NCBI GenBank assembly: GCA_942492765.1
Contig: OW818634.1
Coordinates: 601,159-665,158, forward strand
Source of the DNA: an uncultured bacterium
GTDB taxonomy: Bacteria; Patescibacteriota; Patescibacteriia; Patescibacteriales; UBA12465
DNA: 64,000 bases
Direction: 5' to 3'
Shown: in pieces, positions 2,902-46,213 of the stretch
Layout: each line of letters begins with the position of its first letter
How positions within the stretch are numbered: position 1 is the stretch's first letter
Made by a program: the position numbers and the translations under genes
Notes under the pieces: generated by a model
Told to the model about the DNA's origin: nothing
Seen by the model: only the letters and a program-made list of their open reading frames with translations
Database searches by the model: none

Positions 2902-4083
2902 TTAATTTAAATCATAACCGGATTCGCTGTTTTTAGCAATCCCTCGGAGCTCTAATATACTCAGTGTACTATTTATGACCGAGGTGTCAAGTTTGGTTTT
3001 TCTGACGATTTCGTCGGCGCTAATTTTTTCCGCGCGCTCCGAAGCTTCTTTTAATAGCCTATAAACGCTGGCCTCAGCCTCGTTATTAAAGGAGAAAGAC
3101 GGCTGGCGGGTAGTGCGCTTTTTAGCCGTTTCGCTATTAGCGCTGGGATTATTATTAGAGTTTGTATCTAGCCCATAAACTTCTAATATGTCTTCGGGGC
3201 TGGTTATCGTTTTAGCGCCAAGCTTTATCAGCTTATTCGGCCCAGCAGAAAATTCAGAAAATATGTTTCCCGGGACAGCCAGCACCTCCCTATTCTCTTC
3301 TAAAGCATAGCTGGCCGTAATCAAGGCGCCGGATTTTTCTTTTGCCTCGATAACTAAAGTCGCCTGCGCTAAGCCGGCGATGATGCGATTGCGTTGCGGG
3401 AAGTTTTGTTTAAAAGGAGGAGTCCTAGGCGGAAATTCAGAAATTAAAGCGCCGCCGCTATCTATTATCTCCTGCGCGAGCCGGCGGTTGCTAGCGGGGT
3501 AAATACTTTTATAATCCAAGCCCGATCCTAAGACTGCCCAAGTTTTTCCTTTAAGCTCTAAGGCCTTTTGATGCGCTAGAGCATCTATTCCTAAAGCTAA
3601 GCCGCTGATGATATTTATTTTCAACTCAACAATCTCCGGCAATAGCGCGGCAATAGCTTTTTCTCCATAGGCGCTGAATTTTCGCGAACCGACAACGGCC
3701 AAATGATTATCTGTGTCACTATCCAGCCTTCCTTTATAATATAGGACTGGCGGCGGGGATGATATTTCTCTAAGTAGAGCGGGATAACCAGAGTCATTCC
3801 AGATAATGAAAGATATTTCCTCTTTTTCTAATTCAGCAATCATGTTTTTGATAGAAGCGGCTGGAGTTTTTCTCCAGATGACGAAATCTTTTACTAAAGA
3901 CGGCCTTAATCCGGCTCGTTCTAGCTCTACGGCATTCGCAAAAAAGGTTTGGCGCATGTTTGGAAAGAATTTTTCCAGCCTTTTTGTATTTACTGGGCCG
4001 ATTTTTTGGAAATGGTTGAGGGCAAGATAGTAATAGCGGTTTTCGTAATTCATATTTTGTTTAATTTTAGTTAAAATAATCAA
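2902..4083 (-). CDS. dprA: DNA processing/protecting protein DprA (Smf)
   Basis: DprA Rossmann core VVGSRKFSAYG...SGLALGIDALAHQ...GALISEFPP plus a C-terminal winged-helix-like tail. The true start may be the internal MNYENRYYY. Confidence 0.9.
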   Translation of the reverse strand: MIILTKIKQNMNYENRYYYLALNHFQKIGPVNTKRLEKFFPNMRQTFFANAVELERAGLRPSLVKDFVIWRKTPAASIKNMIAELEKEEISFIIWNDSGYPALLREISSPPPVLYYKGRLDSDTDNHLAVVGSRKFSAYGEKAIAALLPEIVELKINIISGLALGIDALAHQKALELKGKTWAVLGSGLDYKSIYPASNRRLAQEIIDSGGALISEFPPRTPPFKQNFPQRNRIIAGLAQATLVIEAKEKSGALITASYALEENREVLAVPGNIFSEFSAGPNKLIKLGAKTITSPEDILEVYGLDTNSNNNPSANSETAKKRTTRQPSFSFNNEAEASVYRLLKEASERAEKISADEIVRKTKLDTSVINSTLSILELRGIAKNSESGYDLN

Positions 4084-4168
4084 TTAGTCTTGACCAATAT
4101 CTAATTATATAGTAAATTTATCTGTTAATAATAACCGCTCTTTAAAACAACAAAAAACTATATAAATC

Positions 4169-4702
4169 ATGAAAGCAAAGCCTAAAGTTATCACCATAGT
4201 CCTTTTCGATGGCCAATCGTTTCCGATTGCAGCCTCCGACGGGAAAAAGATAATTTCCCTGGGAAAGAATATTATCTGGTTCTGTTCTGATTTTACAAGG
4301 TTCGGATTGGATAAGCCTAGTCAGTCAACGAAGAAGGTCGATGTCGTTATCCATGAGATGACGGCCGACGGCACTTTCCTAGAAGTTTTCTCTGGAATCA
4401 ACCCAGATTTGAGCAAGCTCGTCATGACGATGGCTAATATCCTTGATTTCTGTGAGCAGCATCCCAACAAGCTTCACCAAGATGGTTTCGGAACCTTTTT
4501 CTTAACGGAGAAGAAATTGAATATCTTTCAGAAGATATTTCGGCACCTTTTTAACAGGAAGCTGGAATATTTCGTAACTCGCGTGTACGTGCATTCTGTC
4601 GGCTTGTCCGTCTACGTGCATCGTCTTGAGTGCAGCTTCGTCTGGCTTGCCGAGTATCGTCATCGCGTGGTCTCTCTGCGATGTGCACCCTTGAAGGCTT
4701 AG
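4169..4702 (+). CDS. Hypothetical protein (ORFan by eye)
   Basis: 177-aa ORF followed by a strong terminator at 4796-4826. No motif recognised. Confidence 0.4.
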   Translation: MKAKPKVITIVLFDGQSFPIAASDGKKIISLGKNIIWFCSDFTRFGLDKPSQSTKKVDVVIHEMTADGTFLEVFSGINPDLSKLVMTMANILDFCEQHPNKLHQDGFGTFFLTEKKLNIFQKIFRHLFNRKLEYFVTRVYVHSVGLSVYVHRLECSFVWLAEYRHRVVSLRCAPLKA

Positions 4703-10350: not shown

Positions 10351-11836
<1,486 letters not shown>

Positions 11837-15434: not shown

Positions 15435-17387
15435 ATGAATTTTAAAAAAACTTCGCCGGCAAATGATGCCGGCTCGTATGGCGTTCGCGCCAGATCAGGC
15501 CAAGCGCCAGCGCCCCGAGCCCCTTTTAAGGCTAGGCTAGCGGCTCAGCTGCCTCTGCATCGTCCGACTTTCTCGCCTTCTCAGCGGTCCGTTGCCCAAG
15601 CTCAGCCTAGAAATAATTTTCAAGCTCAGCCTAAGGCTAATATTTCCGCTCCAGCCAGGCCGTCTTTTACGCTTCGGCCTAAAGTGGCCGCCCCTATCCA
15701 AATCAGGACGGCGGGCAGCGAATCCAGCTTCAAGATTTATCCGCTCGGCGGTCAAGAAGAAGTCGGCCGTAATTGCACCGTTTTCGAATATGATAACGAT
15801 ATCATTATTCTCGATATGGGCTTGCAGTTCCCCGAGGAAGACATGCCGGGTATCGATTATATTATTCCTAATGTCTCCTGCTTGCAGGGGAAGGAGAAGA
15901 ATATTCGCGGCGTAATCTTCAGTCATGGCCATCTCGATCATATCGGCGCAGCCCCTATCCTTCTGGAGCAATTAGGTAATCCGCCTATCGTCGGCATGAA
16001 ATTGACGCTCGCTATGATTAAGCATCGTCAGGAAGATTATAAGCGCGGCACGACCAAGAATTTGAAGACGATCTTGATAAACTCTGTTAATCAGAAATTA
16101 TCTTTAGGAAAATTTCAGATCAGCTTCTTCCAGGTTGAACATTCGGTCATTGATGCCGTCGGCGTCATTATCAGCACTCCCCATGGCACGGTTATTCATC
16201 CTGGCGATTGGACTATGGAAAGCGATCCGATGGAAGGACCAGTCGTCGGTTATACGCACTTGGCGCAATTGCCGTCTCCGAGAATCTTGATGCTGGAAAG
16301 CCTTGGCGTTTCATACCCGGCCGAAAGAGTGCCGGTCAAAGTGACGCTCAATAATCTAGAGAAGCTCATCAACGAGGCGAAGGGGCGCGTTATTATCGGC
16401 ACCTTCTCTTCCCAGCTGGAACGCATCACGCAACTCTTGGCCTATGCCGAGAAGATAGGCAAGAAAGTCGCGCTCGATGGCTATAGCATGAAAATGAACG
16501 TGCGCATCTCGCAGGAACTCGGCTATATTCCGGCTCATAAGAATACTCTTATCCCAGTAGAAGATATCAGCAAGTATCCTGATAACAGGATCGTGGTTAT
16601 CTGTACGGGCGCCCAAGGAGAGTCAAATGCCGTCTTTTCCCGCATCGTGAACGGCAACCACCGTTATCTGTCCATTCAGAAATCAGATGTAGTAGTATTT
16701 TCTTCATCGGTAATTCCTGGAAACGAGCGGTCTGTCCAAAGAGTTAAGGATCAGGTATATCGCCTGAGCGATAATGTCATCCATAGCAGCATCATGGATA
16801 TCCATTCCGGCGGGCATGCTAATGCCGAAGATATTAAGAATATCTTGAAGCAGATCAGGCCAGATTATTTCCTTCCGGTTTACGCCAATCATTACATGTT
16901 GGTCGAAGCTAAGAAATTAGCTTTGCGCGAAGGTTTTCATGAAGACCAGATATCTGTTTTAGACAACGGCAGCGTTATCAAATTCCAAAGAGGGCGCAAG
17001 CCGCTTGTCCTTAAAGAAAAGATGAATACTGATTATGTCATGGTCGATGGTCTCGGCGTCGGCGACGTTTCTGAGATCGTTCTCCGCGACCGCCGCATGA
17101 TGGCTGATGATGGCATGATTGTCGTCATCGCGACTATCGACGCTAAGACCGGGGCGATTATCGGTAATCCCGACCTGATTTCTCGCGGCTTTGTCCATAT
17201 GAAGGAGAACCGTGACCTGATTGAGAAGACTAGGGCGAAAGTTAAGAAGATAGTCAAAGATAAGAACCCGATGACTGCGGCTGATGATGATTATATTAAG
17301 AATAAGATTAGGAACGAAATCGGCCAATTCTTATTTATTACCACCAAGCGCCGCCCCATGGTCCTGCCTGTGATCATCAAGGTTTAA
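15435..17387 (+). CDS. rnj: Ribonuclease J with an N-terminal P/A/Q/R-rich extension of about 100 aa
   Basis: Metallo-beta-lactamase/beta-CASP core: KIYPLGGQEEVGRNC, HGHLDHIG, and a GDW-type motif. The canonical N-terminus begins near residue 100. Confidence 0.9.
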   Translation: MNFKKTSPANDAGSYGVRARSGQAPAPRAPFKARLAAQLPLHRPTFSPSQRSVAQAQPRNNFQAQPKANISAPARPSFTLRPKVAAPIQIRTAGSESSFKIYPLGGQEEVGRNCTVFEYDNDIIILDMGLQFPEEDMPGIDYIIPNVSCLQGKEKNIRGVIFSHGHLDHIGAAPILLEQLGNPPIVGMKLTLAMIKHRQEDYKRGTTKNLKTILINSVNQKLSLGKFQISFFQVEHSVIDAVGVIISTPHGTVIHPGDWTMESDPMEGPVVGYTHLAQLPSPRILMLESLGVSYPAERVPVKVTLNNLEKLINEAKGRVIIGTFSSQLERITQLLAYAEKIGKKVALDGYSMKMNVRISQELGYIPAHKNTLIPVEDISKYPDNRIVVICTGAQGESNAVFSRIVNGNHRYLSIQKSDVVVFSSSVIPGNERSVQRVKDQVYRLSDNVIHSSIMDIHSGGHANAEDIKNILKQIRPDYFLPVYANHYMLVEAKKLALREGFHEDQISVLDNGSVIKFQRGRKPLVLKEKMNTDYVMVDGLGVGDVSEIVLRDRRMMADDGMIVVIATIDAKTGAIIGNPDLISRGFVHMKENRDLIEKTRAKVKKIVKDKNPMTAADDDYIKNKIRNEIGQFLFITTKRRPMVLPVIIKV

Positions 17388-17410
17388 TTATAATTAGCTA
17401 ATATTAAATA

Positions 17411-18407: not shown

Positions 18408-18815
18408 CTATTTCTCTGACGGGGTTTCTGCCTCTTCTTTGATCTTCTCGCTGCGCTTGTGTTCCTCGGATAACATTATCAGCTGTCCGTTTATTGACGC
18501 TCCTTTGTCTATGGAGATCTCTTCATATTGGATATCGCCGAAGATCTTGGCGGTTTCTCCGATAGAAAGATATCCCTTGGCCTTGATGTTGCCGCGGACT
18601 TCTCCGTTTATGACTGCTCCTTTAGACTCGATGCTGGCCACTACCTTAGCTTGATGCCCGATAAACACGTCTGAAGCAGTTTTCAAAGAGCCCTCTAGGG
18701 ATCCTTCGATAATGATATTTCCCTGCCCTTGGAAATTTCCTTTTACCTTGATAGATGCGCCGATGATAGTTTCGGCGTCTTTAAATTTTTCCGACTTATT
18801 GTCTTTGCTAAACAT
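18408..18815 (-). CDS. Bactofilin family cytoskeletal protein
   Basis: Repetitive beta-helix pattern IKVKGNFQGQGNIIIEGSLEGSL...VINGEVRGNIKAKGYLSIGETAKIFGDI, typical of DUF583/bactofilin. Confidence 0.8.
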   Translation of the reverse strand: MFSKDNKSEKFKDAETIIGASIKVKGNFQGQGNIIIEGSLEGSLKTASDVFIGHQAKVVASIESKGAVINGEVRGNIKAKGYLSIGETAKIFGDIQYEEISIDKGASINGQLIMLSEEHKRSEKIKEEAETPSEK

Positions 18816-18967: not shown

Positions 18968-19039
18968 GTCCTTGTAGTTCAATGGATAGAACGAGAATCT
19001 CCTAAGTTCTAAATCCCGGTTCGACTCCGGGCGAGGACA
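18968..19039 (+). tRNA. tRNA-Arg (anticodon CCT)
   Basis: Acceptor GTCCTTG/CGAGGAC, anticodon stem AGAAT/GTTCT, loop CTCCTAA, T-loop TTCGACT. Trailer CAT. Confidence 0.9.
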
Positions 19040-19093
19040 CATTTTTTATTTAATGTTAGCTAAATAATTAATAAAATTAAGGTATTTTTCTTT

Positions 19094-19117
19094 AGAATGT
19101 TCCTTGAGGAACATTCT
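19094..19117. repeat. Perfect 24-nt palindrome agaatgttcc-ttga-ggaacattct (family copy 1)
   Basis: Read directly. With its flank (19088-19115) it is the 28-nt inverted repeat of 19955-19982. Confidence 0.95.
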
Positions 19118-19187
19118 ACCCTCCCCCGTTTCTTTAGAGTCCCTGTATAATAGATATTTGTAACTTAACAACTAAAACATAGAAGCC

Positions 19188-19784
19188 ATGGAAAACTTAG
19201 CATTGTTTGTATTGTTATTTGATCCAGAAGACTTTAAAAGTCTTTTGAGGAATTGCCACCCTGCTGATCTTTTAGACAATCCGCAGCGCTTCAAACTTAT
19301 TGTAGAAACAAGAAGAGGCGTTAGAAAAATTTATTTTCAAGATATCTATCGCATCTCAGAAGAGAGAGGCAAGGTGAGTGTCCACTATCGAATTAGAAAT
19401 AAGGATACCGGAAAAGCAAGTTATTATCAGATTAAGGATATCGATCAAGTTTTCTTGAAATTTTTTTTCTTACCATTCCTAGAACATGAGATTTTTTGCA
19501 AGAAAGTCGCTATGATTGTCGGAATAATTTGTCTAGGATTGAAAGATTCGGAAAATAGGCTAGGAAAAGCTTTCGAATCTTTTAAATATTTTGATAGTTT
19601 GAAGACCGAATGTGTAAAAAAACAGGATTTTGAGGAGGCCGTGAAATATAGAGAAAAATCGATCATTGCCGTTGACCCAATCAGGGAGTATATAAAAGAA
19701 AGGCTGGGGCATGGTTATGATGAGGTTATGGATTATGTTCTTAAAAATCATGGCGAGCTCATGAAAATATCAGAAGTAGCTTAG
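19188..19784 (+). CDS. Hypothetical protein (AT-rich ORFan bracketed by the palindrome family)
   Basis: 198 aa. The N-terminal half (KLIVETRRGVRKIYFQDIYRISEERGKVSVHY) faintly resembles a LytTR-type DNA-binding pattern. The C-terminal part has a UVR-like KKQDFEEAVKYREK. Both resemblances are weak. Confidence 0.45.
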   Translation: MENLALFVLLFDPEDFKSLLRNCHPADLLDNPQRFKLIVETRRGVRKIYFQDIYRISEERGKVSVHYRIRNKDTGKASYYQIKDIDQVFLKFFFLPFLEHEIFCKKVAMIVGIICLGLKDSENRLGKAFESFKYFDSLKTECVKKQDFEEAVKYREKSIIAVDPIREYIKERLGHGYDEVMDYVLKNHGELMKISEVA

Positions 19785-19800
19785 TTTGTAGTAAATTTAT

Positions 19801-19830
19801 AAAAGGCCTGGATTAATTCGGGCCTTTTTT
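19801..19830 (+). terminator. Intrinsic terminator after the ORFan
   Basis: aaaaggcc-tggattaattcg-ggcctttttt. Confidence 0.7.
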
Positions 19831-19924
19831 ATTAAATTGATTTTTTCCTCATATTTTACCTTCTTGACTTTTATTTATAATCTAGTATTATATAAATATT
19901 GCCCATTTTTTAATGTTTTTGGAT

Positions 19925-19946
19925 AATTGTTCCTTGAGGAACAATT
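19925..19946. repeat. Perfect 22-nt palindrome aattgttcc-ttga-ggaacaatt (family copy 2)
   Basis: Read directly. Confidence 0.95.
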
Positions 19947-19954
19947 TTAGGAAA

Positions 19955-19974
19955 AATGTTCCTCAAGGAACATT
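19955..19974. repeat. Perfect 20-nt palindrome aatgttcc-tcaa-ggaacatt (family copy 3)
   Basis: Read directly. 19955-19982 is the reverse complement of 19088-19115. Confidence 0.95.
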
Positions 19975-19992
19975 CTAAAGAATATTTAAAAT

Positions 19993-20012
19993 ATTGTTCC
20001 TTAAGGAACAAT
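19993..20012. repeat. Perfect 20-nt palindrome attgttcc-ttaa-ggaacaat (family copy 4)
   Basis: Read directly. It ends 6 nt before tRNA-Ala. Confidence 0.95.
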
Positions 20013-20018
20013 CAGAGA

Positions 20019-20092
20019 GGGCCATTAGCTCAGTTGGCTAGAGCGCTTCCATGGCATGGAAGAGGTCAAGGGTTCAAGTCCCTTATGGTCCA
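20019..20092 (+). tRNA. tRNA-Ala (anticodon GGC)
   Basis: Acceptor GGGCCAT/ATGGTCC with G3:U70, anticodon stem CTTCC/GGAAG, loop ATGGCAT. Trailer CAA. Confidence 0.9.
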
Positions 20093-20463
20093 CAATAAAG
20101 ATCTGTATTAACAGGTCTTTTTATTTTGCAAAATAATGGCAGCATAAGTAATTACCAGGATCCGTCGTCAGAAATAAGTCTAAAATTAAAATAAAAGTTT
20201 AAAAGTGCCTAATATAAAATTCAATAACAGGGAATAGGGATAAGTCTACATAAATCTAGACTTTTAGATATAATTTTGCTAATATTAAATAAATAATAAT
20301 ACATAAAAAATGTGTATAAGTTGTTGGAATCTTTATTTTTTGGCTAAAATTATTAATTTTATAGTAAATTTTTTTATCTTTTCTCTTGATTAATTCTTAT
20401 TTGCACAAAAACTATAAAAACCATATAATTAAGATATAATTTTTATTTTTATAGCCTAAATTT

Positions 20464-31372: not shown

Positions 31373-31501
31373 ATTTGTTTAATGTTAGCCAATTAAAAAA
31401 TCCCGACTATATCATATGAAAGATATTAAAGCAGGGATTTTCTTGACCAATTACTTTAGCACGGGTAGATAAAAAAGTCAAGACTTGGCTGTGGATAAGA
31501 C

Positions 31502-42949: not shown

Positions 42950-45900
42950 TTAACGTCCGGCTAAGTTGATCTCGTCCAGCTTGACGCTCAGCAGCTTGCT
43001 GACTCCGTCAGCCTCCATAGTCACTCCGTAGAGGATGCTCGCTTTGCGCATGCAGGCGCGGTTATGAGTGATAACAATGAATTGCGTCTTGTTAGACAGA
43101 TCATCAAGGATACTAGCCAGGCGTTCGGAATTAGCCTCATCAAGAGCAGCATCGACTTCATCGAGCACGACGAAAGGCGACGGATTGGCGCTGATGATGG
43201 CGCAGATGAGAGCGATAGCGGTCAGGGCTCGTTCGCCGCCAGAAAGCATTGTGACCGTCTGGATCTTCTTGCCCGGAGGCGTCGCCTGGACTTCGATGCC
43301 AGCAAGCCCGACAGCGTTATGTTTCTTGAGGAATTTTATTTTTTTCAGCTTCTCGTCGGTTTGGTTCTTGATTTCAACCTCCGCCGGAGTCAGTCCGCTT
43401 ATTTCTGGTTTGACGGCCGGACTATTCTTAGCTTCCTCCTTTTCAACATCTTCCGTCATAACTTTGGATATCTTAGCGTTGCCGCCGTTGAAAAGGATCT
43501 TAAAATATTCATTGAATTTCTCGGAGATGACTTTAAACTCAGCATCGAAGCGGTCCTTGATATTCACGTCTAGTTCGTAGATTATCTCCTCCAGGGATTT
43601 GATAGCATTATCGAGGTCGTCGACTTGGCCACTCAAGAAATCATAGCGCTCCTTGGTCTCTTGATATTCCTTTTCCGCTTCCGGGTCGATACCCCCGATT
43701 TGTTCTAATTGGCTCTTGTTATTCGTTAATCTTTTCTGCAAGAGATTGATGTCAATCGCCTTTTCGCTTTCGCGGTAATCCTTGATCTCAGAAATGTTCA
43801 ATTCCTCGCCCCTGATATTAGCTTCTAAATCTTCTAGTCTCGTCTCTTGCCGTGTCGCCTCTATCTTGAGGCCATTAAGCTGATCGGAAATCTCGTTAAC
43901 CTCCGCTTGGAGGGACTGGATATTTTTTTGGCATTCGAACATCTGCGATTTTTCCTTGTCCTTTTCGCGGTTGAGCTCTTCGAGCTTATCTTCTATTTCT
44001 CTTATTTCAGAATTCAGGCCGGTAAGTTTCTCGTTTATCTCCTTCTTTTCTATCTCGATGCCGCTAGCGTCGAATTTGACTTGGCTCTTGGCAATCTTGA
44101 TCTTGATATCTTCAATCTCCTTTTCGCTTTGAGTCTTCTTGGCGCGCAGCAGACGCAAGCGCTCGTCAATGGCTGAAGCTTTGAGGCGATAGTCCTGGAT
44201 TTTTGATAAGGCCGCCTGCTTCTTTTCGTCCAGTTCGCCTAAACGGTCATTCTTGGATAATTCAGCTGCCTCTTTTTCTAGGACCGATATCTTTTTATAT
44301 ATTTCTGATTTTTCGCCTTCGATTTTGGAGGCATCGAACTTTATCTGAGCCTTATCGAGCTTGGCCCTGATATCGGTAACTTCTCGGTTCGTTTGTCTCT
44401 CCTTGTCTTCTAGGAGGCGCAGGCGTTCGGTGACTGACGATAGCCGCAACCTCTCCTCGTTCAAGCGATTATTAGCTTCTTGGCGCTCTTCTGTCAGAGA
44501 GATGATCTCCGTCTGGATATCTTTTATTCTTTGGACATCATCTCCGCCGCCGCCGGAAATAAGCGCCTGGATTTTGTTCTTGAATTCAGCCTTGGCCGAG
44601 GCGATCATCTTCTTTATCTTCTCCAGATCGCTTTCATGGCCGATCGTATCTAGCTCTTTCAGGAATTCGTCGATGACGCGGCTGATCTCTTCATTCTGAT
44701 TGCCGGCCGCACTTGCTTTTTTCAGCTCCTTATTGATAGCTTCTATCTCGGTATTCAGATGGCCCAGCTTCTCCTGGATCGCACTCAGTTTATTTTCTAA
44801 GTTTATTTTTTCTGTCTGATTATTCTCTGCGCGGAGACGACCGATCTCTTCAACGAGCGATTCCAAGTCTTTGACCAGTTCCTCGTTCTTATTATTCAGC
44901 CAGGAGACGTCGAATTGTCCTTGGATTTCCAGGTTAGCTTCCAAGACAGCCTCCAGTTTAGATATTTGTCGCAGATATTGGTCCTTCTCTGTATTCAGTT
45001 GGCTGATTTTTATCCTTAGGCCGTTAGCTTTTTCTATCTCTTGGTTGATAAAGCGCAATTCATCGTTAAGGGCCGTCTCTTCTTTGGAAGAATTATTTTT
45101 TTCGTTGGCGCTGATTTCAGAGTTTATGTTTTCCAGTTCGGCGCTTAGCTCTCCCTGCTTATTATTGAGCCAAGAGATATCAAATTGTCCCTGCGATTCT
45201 AATTGCACCTCTAATTCAGCTTGTAACTTGGCTAGCTGTTTCAGGTATTGATTTTTTCTAGCTTCCAGGTCTCTCAGGCGCGGAGTCAACTCATTTATCT
45301 CTCGGAAATTATCGGTGTTTCTGATTTTATTCAGCTCCTCATTGAGCTTGTCTAACTTTTTTTCGCGCTCCAGCTTCAGCCTCTCGCTTTCCAGGAAGCG
45401 GGCATTGAAAGAATCTAATTTTTTATTGATATCTTGCCAGAGATAGCCATAATAATTCAATTGGTCGCCCTTAAGCTCCGATTCTATTTCACCGCGGCGC
45501 TTCAGTTTCTCTACTTGGCGGGTTAGGCTCTTAAGGCGCGGCCTGATTTCGGAAAGCAGCATGTCGACTTGTTGAAGATTCTCATAGCTGTTTTCTAGCT
45601 TATTAAGGGCTGAGTCGCGCTTAATCTGAAATTGCTTGACGCCAGTCGCCTCGTCGAAAAAATCTTTTCTGTCCGCGGCCGAAGAGCTCAAGAAATTCTC
45701 GACCATGCCCTGGCCGATGACGCTATAAGTCTTCTGTCCGAAATTAGCTTTAGCTAAGAGCATCTGGATATCGGCTAGCCGGACGCGATTATTATTCAAG
45801 AGATATTCGCTTTCGCCGCTGCGGTAAAGGCGGCGAGTGATGATGATTTCGCCGCAACTGGCGATCAGCTGGTCAAGATCGCTTTCTTTTTCGATCGTTT

Positions 45901-46213
45901 CTGGAATCTCCGCTTTATTCTTCAGAGCCTCGGCGTTATTCAGATATAAAGACACCTCGGCTAAGCTGAGCTGGCTCTTCTGATCGGAACCGGAAAAGAT
46001 GATGTCTTCGCTTTTTTTGCCGCGCAAAGTCTTGAGACTCTGTTCGCCTAAAGCCCAGCGGACAGCGTCAGCGACGTTAGATTTTCCGGATCCGTTCGGT
46101 CCGACGATAGCCGTCAAGCCTCTTTTTTGCTCATTGATCAATCCGGAGAAGATAAGCTTATTCTTATGGGCGAAGGATTTGAAACCCTGAACTTCCAGTT
46201 TTTCTAGATACAT
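42950..46213 (-). CDS. smc: SMC-type chromosome condensation ATPase lacking a recognisable hinge domain
   Basis: N-terminal head FKSF..IVGPNGSGKSNVADAVRWALGEQSLKTLRG. C-terminal head LSGGERALTAIAL..VLDEVDAALD. The middle is continuous coiled-coil with only ISGGGGDD at residues about 552-559 of 1087. Confidence 0.85.
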   Translation of the reverse strand: MYLEKLEVQGFKSFAHKNKLIFSGLINEQKRGLTAIVGPNGSGKSNVADAVRWALGEQSLKTLRGKKSEDIIFSGSDQKSQLSLAEVSLYLNNAEALKNKAEIPETIEKESDLDQLIASCGEIIITRRLYRSGESEYLLNNNRVRLADIQMLLAKANFGQKTYSVIGQGMVENFLSSSAADRKDFFDEATGVKQFQIKRDSALNKLENSYENLQQVDMLLSEIRPRLKSLTRQVEKLKRRGEIESELKGDQLNYYGYLWQDINKKLDSFNARFLESERLKLEREKKLDKLNEELNKIRNTDNFREINELTPRLRDLEARKNQYLKQLAKLQAELEVQLESQGQFDISWLNNKQGELSAELENINSEISANEKNNSSKEETALNDELRFINQEIEKANGLRIKISQLNTEKDQYLRQISKLEAVLEANLEIQGQFDVSWLNNKNEELVKDLESLVEEIGRLRAENNQTEKINLENKLSAIQEKLGHLNTEIEAINKELKKASAAGNQNEEISRVIDEFLKELDTIGHESDLEKIKKMIASAKAEFKNKIQALISGGGGDDVQRIKDIQTEIISLTEERQEANNRLNEERLRLSSVTERLRLLEDKERQTNREVTDIRAKLDKAQIKFDASKIEGEKSEIYKKISVLEKEAAELSKNDRLGELDEKKQAALSKIQDYRLKASAIDERLRLLRAKKTQSEKEIEDIKIKIAKSQVKFDASGIEIEKKEINEKLTGLNSEIREIEDKLEELNREKDKEKSQMFECQKNIQSLQAEVNEISDQLNGLKIEATRQETRLEDLEANIRGEELNISEIKDYRESEKAIDINLLQKRLTNNKSQLEQIGGIDPEAEKEYQETKERYDFLSGQVDDLDNAIKSLEEIIYELDVNIKDRFDAEFKVISEKFNEYFKILFNGGNAKISKVMTEDVEKEEAKNSPAVKPEISGLTPAEVEIKNQTDEKLKKIKFLKKHNAVGLAGIEVQATPPGKKIQTVTMLSGGERALTAIALICAIISANPSPFVVLDEVDAALDEANSERLASILDDLSNKTQFIVITHNRACMRKASILYGVTMEADGVSKLLSVKLDEINLAGR

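Follow-up and report, generated by a model that had tools for sequence, protein, structure and literature searches.

Putative variant parS sites beside tRNA-Ala(GGC) in a Patescibacterial chromosome

A 64-kb window of the chromosome of a Patescibacterium (Candidate Phyla Radiation, CPR), to which all window coordinates refer, carries four copies of the motif TGTTCC-N4-GGAACA between the genes for tRNA-Arg(CCT) and tRNA-Ala(GGC), one of them upstream and three downstream of a 198-aa open reading frame (ORF). We judge it likely, with a probability of roughly 70%, that the four form a cluster of variant parS sites recognised by a chromosomal ParB, situated in an old parS neighbourhood by tRNA-Ala into which a lineage-specific gene was inserted later. 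The motif is akin to parS in sequence, is associated with parB genes elsewhere, co-varies there with a residue of ParB, lies close to the replication origin in relatives, and occurs independently of the ORF. To our knowledge, parS and ParB are among the most conserved protein-DNA pairs in bacteria, while Patescibacteria are uncultured, ultra-small organisms of which the cell biology is almost unknown.

Likeness to parS and pairing with a ParB residue

Exact copies of the motif number four in the window versus 0.02 expected from shuffled sequence, and no further site occurs anywhere in it at one mismatch or fewer. The three downstream copies lie within 83 bp, neighbours being 29-38 bp apart, inside the tRNA leader. 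The extended palindromes can be read at 19094-19117, 19925-19946, 19955-19974 and 19993-20012, as a first-pass annotation had claimed. Its description of all four as perfect holds for copy 4 alone (centre TTAA), whereas copies 1-3 have perfect arms of 8-11 nt around a TTGA or TCAA centre that is not self-complementary. Likewise, its statement that the window contains no other copy is correct for exact copies but not for degenerate ones, five of which (2-3 mismatches, mostly with one arm intact) are found at 15826, 18460, 23075, 29159 and 43320, versus about 0.9 matches of any quality expected in the window. These five may be half-sites like those listed for the ParB of Pseudomonas aeruginosa.

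The published parS of P. aeruginosa, Pseudomonas putida and Myxococcus xanthus is TGTTCCACGTGGAACA (PMC4368675 Table 1, PMC7022226 Table 1). The outer arms (6+6) of the window motif are identical to it and the centre alone differs, ACGT being replaced by T(C/T)(A/G)A; the TCGA-centred form found in relatives is identical to TGTTCCACGTGGAACA at 14 of 16 positions. All four window sites have arms of the form TGTT(C/T)C...G(A/G)AACA, and TGTTCC/GGAACA arms are present in 38 of the 46 sites of the clade. P. aeruginosa parS7-9, which carry the arm CGAGGAAC, are bound by ParB in vitro (PMC4368675, PMC7022226). Furthermore, locus L076 harbors at 4030-4480 a chromosomal tandem array of about ten parS-like palindromes, TGTT[CT]C-TCGA/TCAA-G[AG]AACA at a spacing of ~29-37 bp, with a tRNA-Thr gene on one side and a sugar-transferase/LeuRS gene pair on the other, and one member of this array, TGTTTC-TCGA-GAAACA, is only two bases off textbook parS (TGTTTCACGTGAAACA). 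In the literature searched, the exact 16-mers turn up only in loop constructs of short hairpin RNAs.

When species-representative genomes were searched for the motif, at least 120 blocks of 8 kb contained it, and proportions among the 120 listed are not exhaustive counts. Full-length ParB, with ParB_N, HTH_ParB and ParB_C domains, is encoded in 13 of the listed blocks (L032, L039, L042, L064, L069, L077, L093, L106, L111, L122, L125, L138 and L143), where by a rough estimate fewer than one parB would be expected in 120 random blocks of that size. The 13 blocks stem from Bacillota metagenome-assembled genomes (MAGs), Sulfobacillus, one Clostridia MAG and one Planctomycetota MAG. Nine of these blocks have the motif inside the 3' end of parB or no more than ~16 nt from its stop codon, and none has a canonical parS. 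Of the 120 listed blocks, 14 also carry ParA, four RsmG, three DnaA and two MnmG.

Half-site positions 1 and 6 distinguish parS from the Noc-binding site (NBS), and the specificity of ParB and Noc is set by four residues, R173, T179, A184 and G201 in Caulobacter crescentus, of which residue 201 faces half-site position 6 and, as Gly201, is described as absolutely conserved across extant ParB orthologues (PMC7383237). That position is A in parS, C in NBS and T in the window motif. Mapping of the specificity residues by alignment to PDB 6t1f places Ala at the 201-equivalent (xAHxK) in all 13 ParBs encoded beside a variant site, and Gly in the reference ParBs of C. crescentus, Bacillus subtilis, Thermus thermophilus and M. 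xanthus. In an independent ParB profile search, 111 of 119 among the best 120 matches have Gly201, and the eight with Ala are the closest relatives of the queries; the coincidence of Ala201 with the variant site reaches a Fisher p of ~5e-18. Two control ParBs of the Gly201 type (L268, L269) are flanked by canonical parS, and the residue mapping is validated by a ParB paralogue in L106 that bears the Noc signature Q-K-H-R. We take these comparisons as strong evidence for the variant 16-mer being a ParB site in the lineages of those other phyla, and they suggest that the pairing of Ala201 with the variant site is an unreported specificity state of the ParB/Noc family.

Origin proximity and independence from the ORF in relatives

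Where do such sites lie in Patescibacterial genomes? In the Falkowbacteria locus L037 the gene order is dnaN, dnaA, rpmH, rnpA, yidD, yidC, followed by DAGK, bactofilin, tRNA-Arg, the palindrome and tRNA-Ala, which puts the site ~3.2 kb from dnaA. In L133, dnaN is found ~5 kb from the site, and L252 carries dnaA, dnaN and yidC in the same locus as TGTTCT-ACGT-AGAACA between tRNA-Arg and tRNA-Ala. As an unbiased sample, we used 120 metagenome loci picked solely by the anticodon-arm sequence of tRNA-Ala(GGC), which are mostly unrelated lineages without any such site. The syntenic close relatives among them carry the variant (L226, L251, L263) or a one-mismatch copy of it (L174). Seven low-GC loci of the sample, whose taxonomy is not established (L162, L183, L190, L195, L202, L205, L224), contain a total of 15 canonical parS sites at variable positions, within ~0.1-2 kb of the same tRNA-Arg(CCT)/tRNA-Ala(GGC)/tRNA-Val cluster. 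The neighbourhood of the tRNA-Arg/tRNA-Ala cluster is thus a recurrent location of parS, at which the clade of the window has a centre-variant.

Following this reading, the four sites would be double-stranded DNA on which ParB dimers nucleate, TGTTCC-T(C/T)(A/G)A-GGAACA being a variant of the canonical TGTT(C/T)C-ACGT-G(A/G)AACA, and they would be bound by a ParB predicted to have Ala at the Gly201-equivalent. We infer that in this organism, too, bound ParB would close as a CTP-dependent clamp, spread over the neighbourhood and load SMC, thereby aiding segregation of the origin region. The sites would occupy the old parS neighbourhood at the tRNA-Arg(CCT)/tRNA-Ala(GGC) cluster, 3' of the tRNA-Ala promoter. 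SMC is the complex loaded by ParB-parS in other bacteria, and we count the SMC gene present in the window in favor of the parS assignment.

The flanking tRNA genes, tRNA-Arg(CCT) and tRNA-Ala(GGC), were confirmed by ARAGORN and Rfam. The 198-aa ORF between them was confirmed too, and has a terminator-like element of its own, a hairpin followed by a T-run. In every member of the ORF family with readable context, the order is bactofilin, tRNA-Arg, ORF, tRNA-Ala, TrxB. The close relatives L001, L005 and L006 share copy 1, with one palindrome 5' of the ORF and two to three before tRNA-Ala, whereas the distant ORF-bearing loci L144, L146 and L147 have none upstream of the ORF and three, four and two copies, respectively, directly before tRNA-Ala. 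Patescibacterial blocks number at least 14 in the motif scan; ten of the 14 listed have no ORF, and in these the palindrome lies in a short spacer between tRNA-Arg(CCT) and tRNA-Ala(GGC), except for L029 and L078, where it lies between tRNA-Ala(GGC) and tRNA-Ala(CGC). In total, at least 11 syntenic genomes keep the sites without having the ORF, and the ORF-less spacers contain an equivalent of the window's tRNA-Ala promoter, TTGACA-17-TATAAT. Measured by TrxB identity to the window, the ORF is absent from loci at 68-72%, present in L144 and L147 at 80-82%, and accompanied by the extra upstream palindrome in the window subclade (L001, L005) at 90% or more.

Because ORF-less relatives keep the sites and distant ORF-bearing loci have no upstream copy, the palindromes belong to the tRNA-Ala upstream region and are older than the ORF. 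The latter appears to have been gained once, by insertion between tRNA-Arg and the tRNA-Ala promoter in one subclade, and to be fast-evolving: it stands in the same slot at 80% TrxB identity while itself having diverged to 23-36%, which points to old vertical inheritance. Copy 1 in turn appears to be a later inverted duplication of one site with its flank, within the window subclade, to a place upstream of the ORF, and this would produce the apparent bracketing. Copies 1 and 3, taken with their flanks, do form an inverted repeat, one a little longer than the 28 nt first claimed (33 nt at 94%, 19088-19120 versus 19950-19982), and it is specific to the window genome, L001 and L005 sharing the core palindrome only. 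ORF and palindromes therefore vary independently, which is the outcome that the first-pass annotation had itself named as refuting its proposal, and this independence removes two readings in which they belong together.

One of these, that the sites are an operator array of the ORF product itself, for autoregulation and control of tRNA-Ala, is very improbable. One copy does lie ~75 nt 5' of the ORF start in the window subclade, and the beta domain of the product is weakly like the Sso7d/Sac7d DNA-binding barrels (Foldseek, E above 0.03, not significant), but the sites persist in the ORF-less genomes, L144, L146 and L147 have ORF homologues without an upstream site, and the ORF matches no DNA-binding family. 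A supposed resemblance to LytTR was not borne out either, with no Pfam LytTR match at E up to 1 and no LytTR among the best 50 Foldseek hits. As such, the general idea of an operator array for a dimeric DNA-binding protein survives, with ParB as the most likely protein, but not with the ORF product as the binder.

The other, a small mobile cassette with terminal inverted repeats, or a repetitive extragenic palindrome (REP) with an associated transposase, inserted at a tRNA, is hardly credible. In the window the inverted repeat flanks the ORF, and the segment adjoins tRNA genes and is indeed AT-rich (GC 0.30-0.35 versus 0.43-0.50 in the flanks). However, the long repeat is peculiar to this genome, the ORF is syntenic and vertically inherited, the 'empty' sites still have palindromes, no transposase or recombinase signature (Y1_Tnp or other) was found in the ORF, no other exact copy occurs in the 64 kb, and viral contigs give single scattered matches. 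An element of the REP-associated tyrosine transposase (RAYT) or IS200/IS605 type was rejected for want of an HUH/Y1 transposase match and of a further exact repeat copy in the 64 kb. A cassette resembling a miniature inverted-repeat transposable element (MITE) or insertion sequence (IS) was rejected since the repeats do not travel with the cargo: ORF-less relatives keep them, and distant ORF-bearing ones are without the upstream repeat. A phage or defence origin was dismissed as well, on account of the scattered viral matches and the ORF having no PHROG or PADLOC family. An invertible segment had been suggested by ORF-only contigs of ~1.07 kb; these end inside both tRNA genes and not at the repeats, and ends within conserved tRNAs fit breaks in the assembly graph.

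The ORF is thus tied to the palindromes by position alone. Its family is small, with three relatives at 71-75% identity, seven more at 23-36% that an exhaustive profile search added, and a single named homologue, from a 'Patescibacteria group bacterium'. Pfam gives the UVR (UvrB/UvrC) motif alone, just below threshold, in five of the 11 members, and the most conserved stretch of the family, K-I-x-x-V-K-x-Q-D-F-E-x-A-A-x-Y-R-D-K-E, is this motif. Structure prediction, which had been proposed as a check on the ORF, returned a confident AlphaFold (AF2) model from 11 sequences (pLDDT 82, pTM 0.73), with a beta domain at residues 36-85 followed by long helices, for which Foldseek found no significant fold match in the PDB and listed no LytTR structure among the best 50.

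The tRNA-Ala leader and points on the other side

Several observations weigh against the parS assignment. The CACGTG core of canonical parS (TGTTNCACGTGAAACA), reported to be important for Pseudomonas ParB binding, is not conserved in the window sites, of which the centres are TTGA, TCAA and TTAA, and we therefore class them as a variant of parS and not as canonical parS, the pattern of which has no match in the window at three mismatches or fewer. The window contains neither dnaA nor dnaN nor a GC-skew switch, so that origin proximity is seen in relatives only. Moreover, neither the 64-kb window nor any Patescibacterial locus examined contains a parB or parA gene. A tblastn search with 14 ParB queries gave no match in the Patescibacterial (CPR) loci examined, the best 120 matches of the ParB profile search are all Bacillota-type ParBs, and the literature searched contains nothing on ParB or parS in Patescibacteria. 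Finally, the last palindrome lies 6-13 nt from the 5' end of tRNA-Ala in 14 of 18 loci (the window and 17 related ones) while the sequence of the gap varies, and the degenerate copies nearest the tRNA keep complementary arms in three cases. This fixed distance and pairing is not explained by a centromere role alone.

These last features are what would be expected if the palindromes were mainly hairpins at the RNA level, located in the 5' leader of pre-tRNA-Ala(GGC) and in the transcript of the tRNA-Arg/ORF spacer, that affect RNase P processing, shield the RNA from a 5' exonuclease or cause pausing, their likeness to parS being incidental in this clade. Every site upstream of tRNA-Ala lies downstream of the conserved sigma-70-type promoter, and in the three degenerate proximal copies pairing is retained by TGTTCT..AGAACA (twice) or a U-G wobble (once). 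The hairpins fold at -8 to -14 kcal/mol, but since any palindrome folds, this is no evidence for an RNA role. Set against this, the stem is invariant instead of co-varying, C-A mismatches break the pairing in other degenerate copies (L037, L147), and the motif also occurs outside tRNA leaders, namely inside a coding gene (L091), in the L076 array and downstream of tRNA-Ala (L037). Furthermore, the exact motif adjoins parB in unrelated phyla and co-varies with a DNA-reading residue of ParB, and the canonical parS sites of other lineages take variable positions around the same tRNA cluster. We consider hairpins unlikely as the main role of the palindromes. Given the placement 3' of the promoter and close to the tRNA, the earlier suggestion that hairpins act on the tRNA-Ala precursor may still hold for a secondary role, while the invariant stems and the parB evidence speak against a role in RNA only.

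Less likely still are operators for another dimeric factor, DeoR/GlpR-like or CRP/FNR-like, that would repress tRNA-Ala and, in the window subclade, the ORF. The sites lie between promoter and transcribed genes, copy 1 abuts a -10-like TAGAAT and copy 2 a GATAAT, and the GlpR operator half-site of Escherichia coli, ATGTTCG, resembles the motif. Yet none of the loci has a candidate regulator gene linked to the sites, and most sites are 30-100 nt 3' of the -10 element, nearer the tRNA than the promoter. Such a factor also leaves unexplained the adjacency to parB, the co-variation with Ala-201, the origin proximity and the canonical parS at this tRNA cluster in other lineages. Two other candidates were rejected. 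For intrinsic terminators, a loose scan passes copy 4 only, on the minus strand, no consistent T-run follows the sites, and the identical 16-mer recurs across phyla. For a replication origin or terminus at the locus itself, the local sign change in GC skew vanishes at 2-kb resolution across the window.

Comparison with known systems and other features of the window

As a kind of element, chromosomal parS is well known; the literature searched seems to hold no precedent for the variant centre, for its pairing with Ala-201 or for the assignment to Patescibacteria. The window sites share with the parS of Pseudomonas and M. xanthus the 16-bp inverted repeat, the identical TGTTCC...GGAACA arms, the clustering of copies and, in relatives, the proximity to the origin; the exact window motif in other phyla and canonical parS in the controls L268 and L269 both stand at the 3' end of parB. 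They differ in the centre, T(C/T)(A/G)A instead of ACGT, and thereby in half-site position 6 (T instead of A, in the numbering of Jalal et al.), in that the visible ParBs of variant sites have Ala and not Gly201, and in the spacing of 29-38 bp within a tRNA leader. NBS (TATTTCCCGGGAAATA) and Noc are an example of a switch in specificity by way of residue 201 and half-site position 6 (PMC7383237), and the variant site and its ParBs are altered at that same base and residue. NBS, however, departs from parS at position 1 as well (G to A, read by Q173). Noc has the residues Q-K-K-R, while the ParBs of variant sites retain R173 and carry Ala instead of Arg at 201. In addition, Noc occurs in Firmicutes only and does not serve as a centromere protein in segregation.

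Close tandem palindromes, such as the three in 83 bp in the window or the ~10 in 450 bp in L076, also recall plasmid centromere arrays; in sopC of the F plasmid, tandem repeats each contain a short inverted repeat. Unlike these, the present sites are chromosomal, have housekeeping neighbours and a sequence of the chromosomal parS family, and their repeat unit is not fixed. A bactofilin gene adjoins the tRNA-Arg/palindrome locus in every syntenic relative, and thus stands beside the site cluster throughout the clade. In M. xanthus, bactofilins together with PadC position ParB-parS (PMC5703909). Here the likeness is one of gene adjacency alone, with no PadC or ParA in view, and a link would be speculative.

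A more tentative proposal, to which we give less than even odds, is that the window sites and the Ala-201 ParBs beside the same motif in other phyla constitute, within the ParB/Noc family, a third natural state of specificity (position 6 T with Ala201, beside A with Gly in parS and C with Arg in NBS), and that this clade uses it for its centromere, which would lie within the 5' leader of tRNA-Ala and keep a constant distance to the first base of the tRNA. If true, placement in the leader could link the loading of ParB to a gene under strong transcription, and the fast-evolving ORF with its UVR motif, along with the adjacent bactofilin, could be accessories of the partition complex. A natural site variant that changes the base facing residue 201 would offer a natural experiment on specificity drift in an essential system. 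As far as the literature searched goes, this would be the first centromere assignment for Patescibacteria, and the variant site could serve as a simple marker of the origin-proximal region in their genomes. It also calls for caution in annotation, as palindromes around an ORFan near tRNA genes can be something other than a mobile element or an operator.

The features of the locus and its surroundings are collected in Table 1.

Table 1. Coordinates of features in the 64-kb window
Feature	Position	Strand	Remarks
Bactofilin gene	18408..18815	-	Pfam Bactofilin 1.2e-24
tRNA-Arg(CCT)	18968..19040	+	ARAGORN, Rfam
Second conserved motif	19049..19065	+	TTTAATGTTAGCTAAAT; inverted partner 20273-20289
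Putative parS-like copy 1	19098..19113 (extended arms 19093-19118)	.	TGTTCCTTGAGGAACA; only in window subclade; absent upstream of the ORF in L144, L146, L147
198-aa lineage-specific ORF	19188..19784	+	Five-stranded beta domain and helical region with UVR-type motif
Terminator-like hairpin after ORF	19802..19831	+	AAAGGCC...GGCCTTT and T-run; read from sequence; conserved in relatives
Sigma-70-type promoter for tRNA-Ala	19864..19891	+	TTGACT-16-TATTAT; invariant in relatives
Putative parS-like copy 2	19928..19943	.	TGTTCCTTGAGGAACA
Putative parS-like copy 3	19957..19972	.	TGTTCCTCAAGGAACA
Putative parS-like copy 4	19995..20010	.	TGTTCCTTAAGGAACA; 8 nt 5' of tRNA-Ala
tRNA-Ala(GGC)	20019..20093	+	ARAGORN, Rfam; terminator-like hairpin 20097-20120 after it
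SMC gene	42950..46213	-	Pfam SMC_N 6.5e-45; context only

A second conserved motif, TTTAAT(G/A)TTAGC(T/A)AAAT, lies just 3' of tRNA-Arg and has an inverted partner upstream of trxB on the minus strand. Its further best matches are at 17392-17408 (-) and 31378-31394 (+), and all four are located between called genes. At three mismatches or fewer the window contains seven matches versus 1.8 expected, and the motif is conserved in the same places in relatives. The RNA genes of the window comprise 12 tRNA genes and one bacterial 16S rRNA gene (10353-11834, minus strand). The latter stands alone, with no 23S or 5S detected by Rfam in the 64 kb, which suggests that the rRNA genes are unlinked.

The spacer between tRNA-Arg and tRNA-Ala has other contents in some lineages. 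Two other syntenic ones (L194, L249) carry there an ORF of ~50 aa for a predicted membrane protein, and neither the palindromes nor the 198-aa ORF. In the distant syntenic locus L167 (tRNA-Arg at ~1006 and tRNA-Ala at ~581, minus strand), the spacer has no parS-like motif and instead three copies of another palindrome, AGTCCAGA-N4-TCTGGACT, together with the DnaA-box-like sequences TTATCAACA and TGTGGATGA. GC-rich insertions or tRNA-like fragments occur within AT-rich tRNA spacers in L044 (5657-5736), L029 (5330-5490 and 5650-5930), L173, L252 (10831-10967) and L144 (5952-6160). In L144 the GC-rich insert is followed by a second copy of the tRNA-Ala 3' end, an arrangement that could reflect an interrupted tRNA or the scar of an integration.

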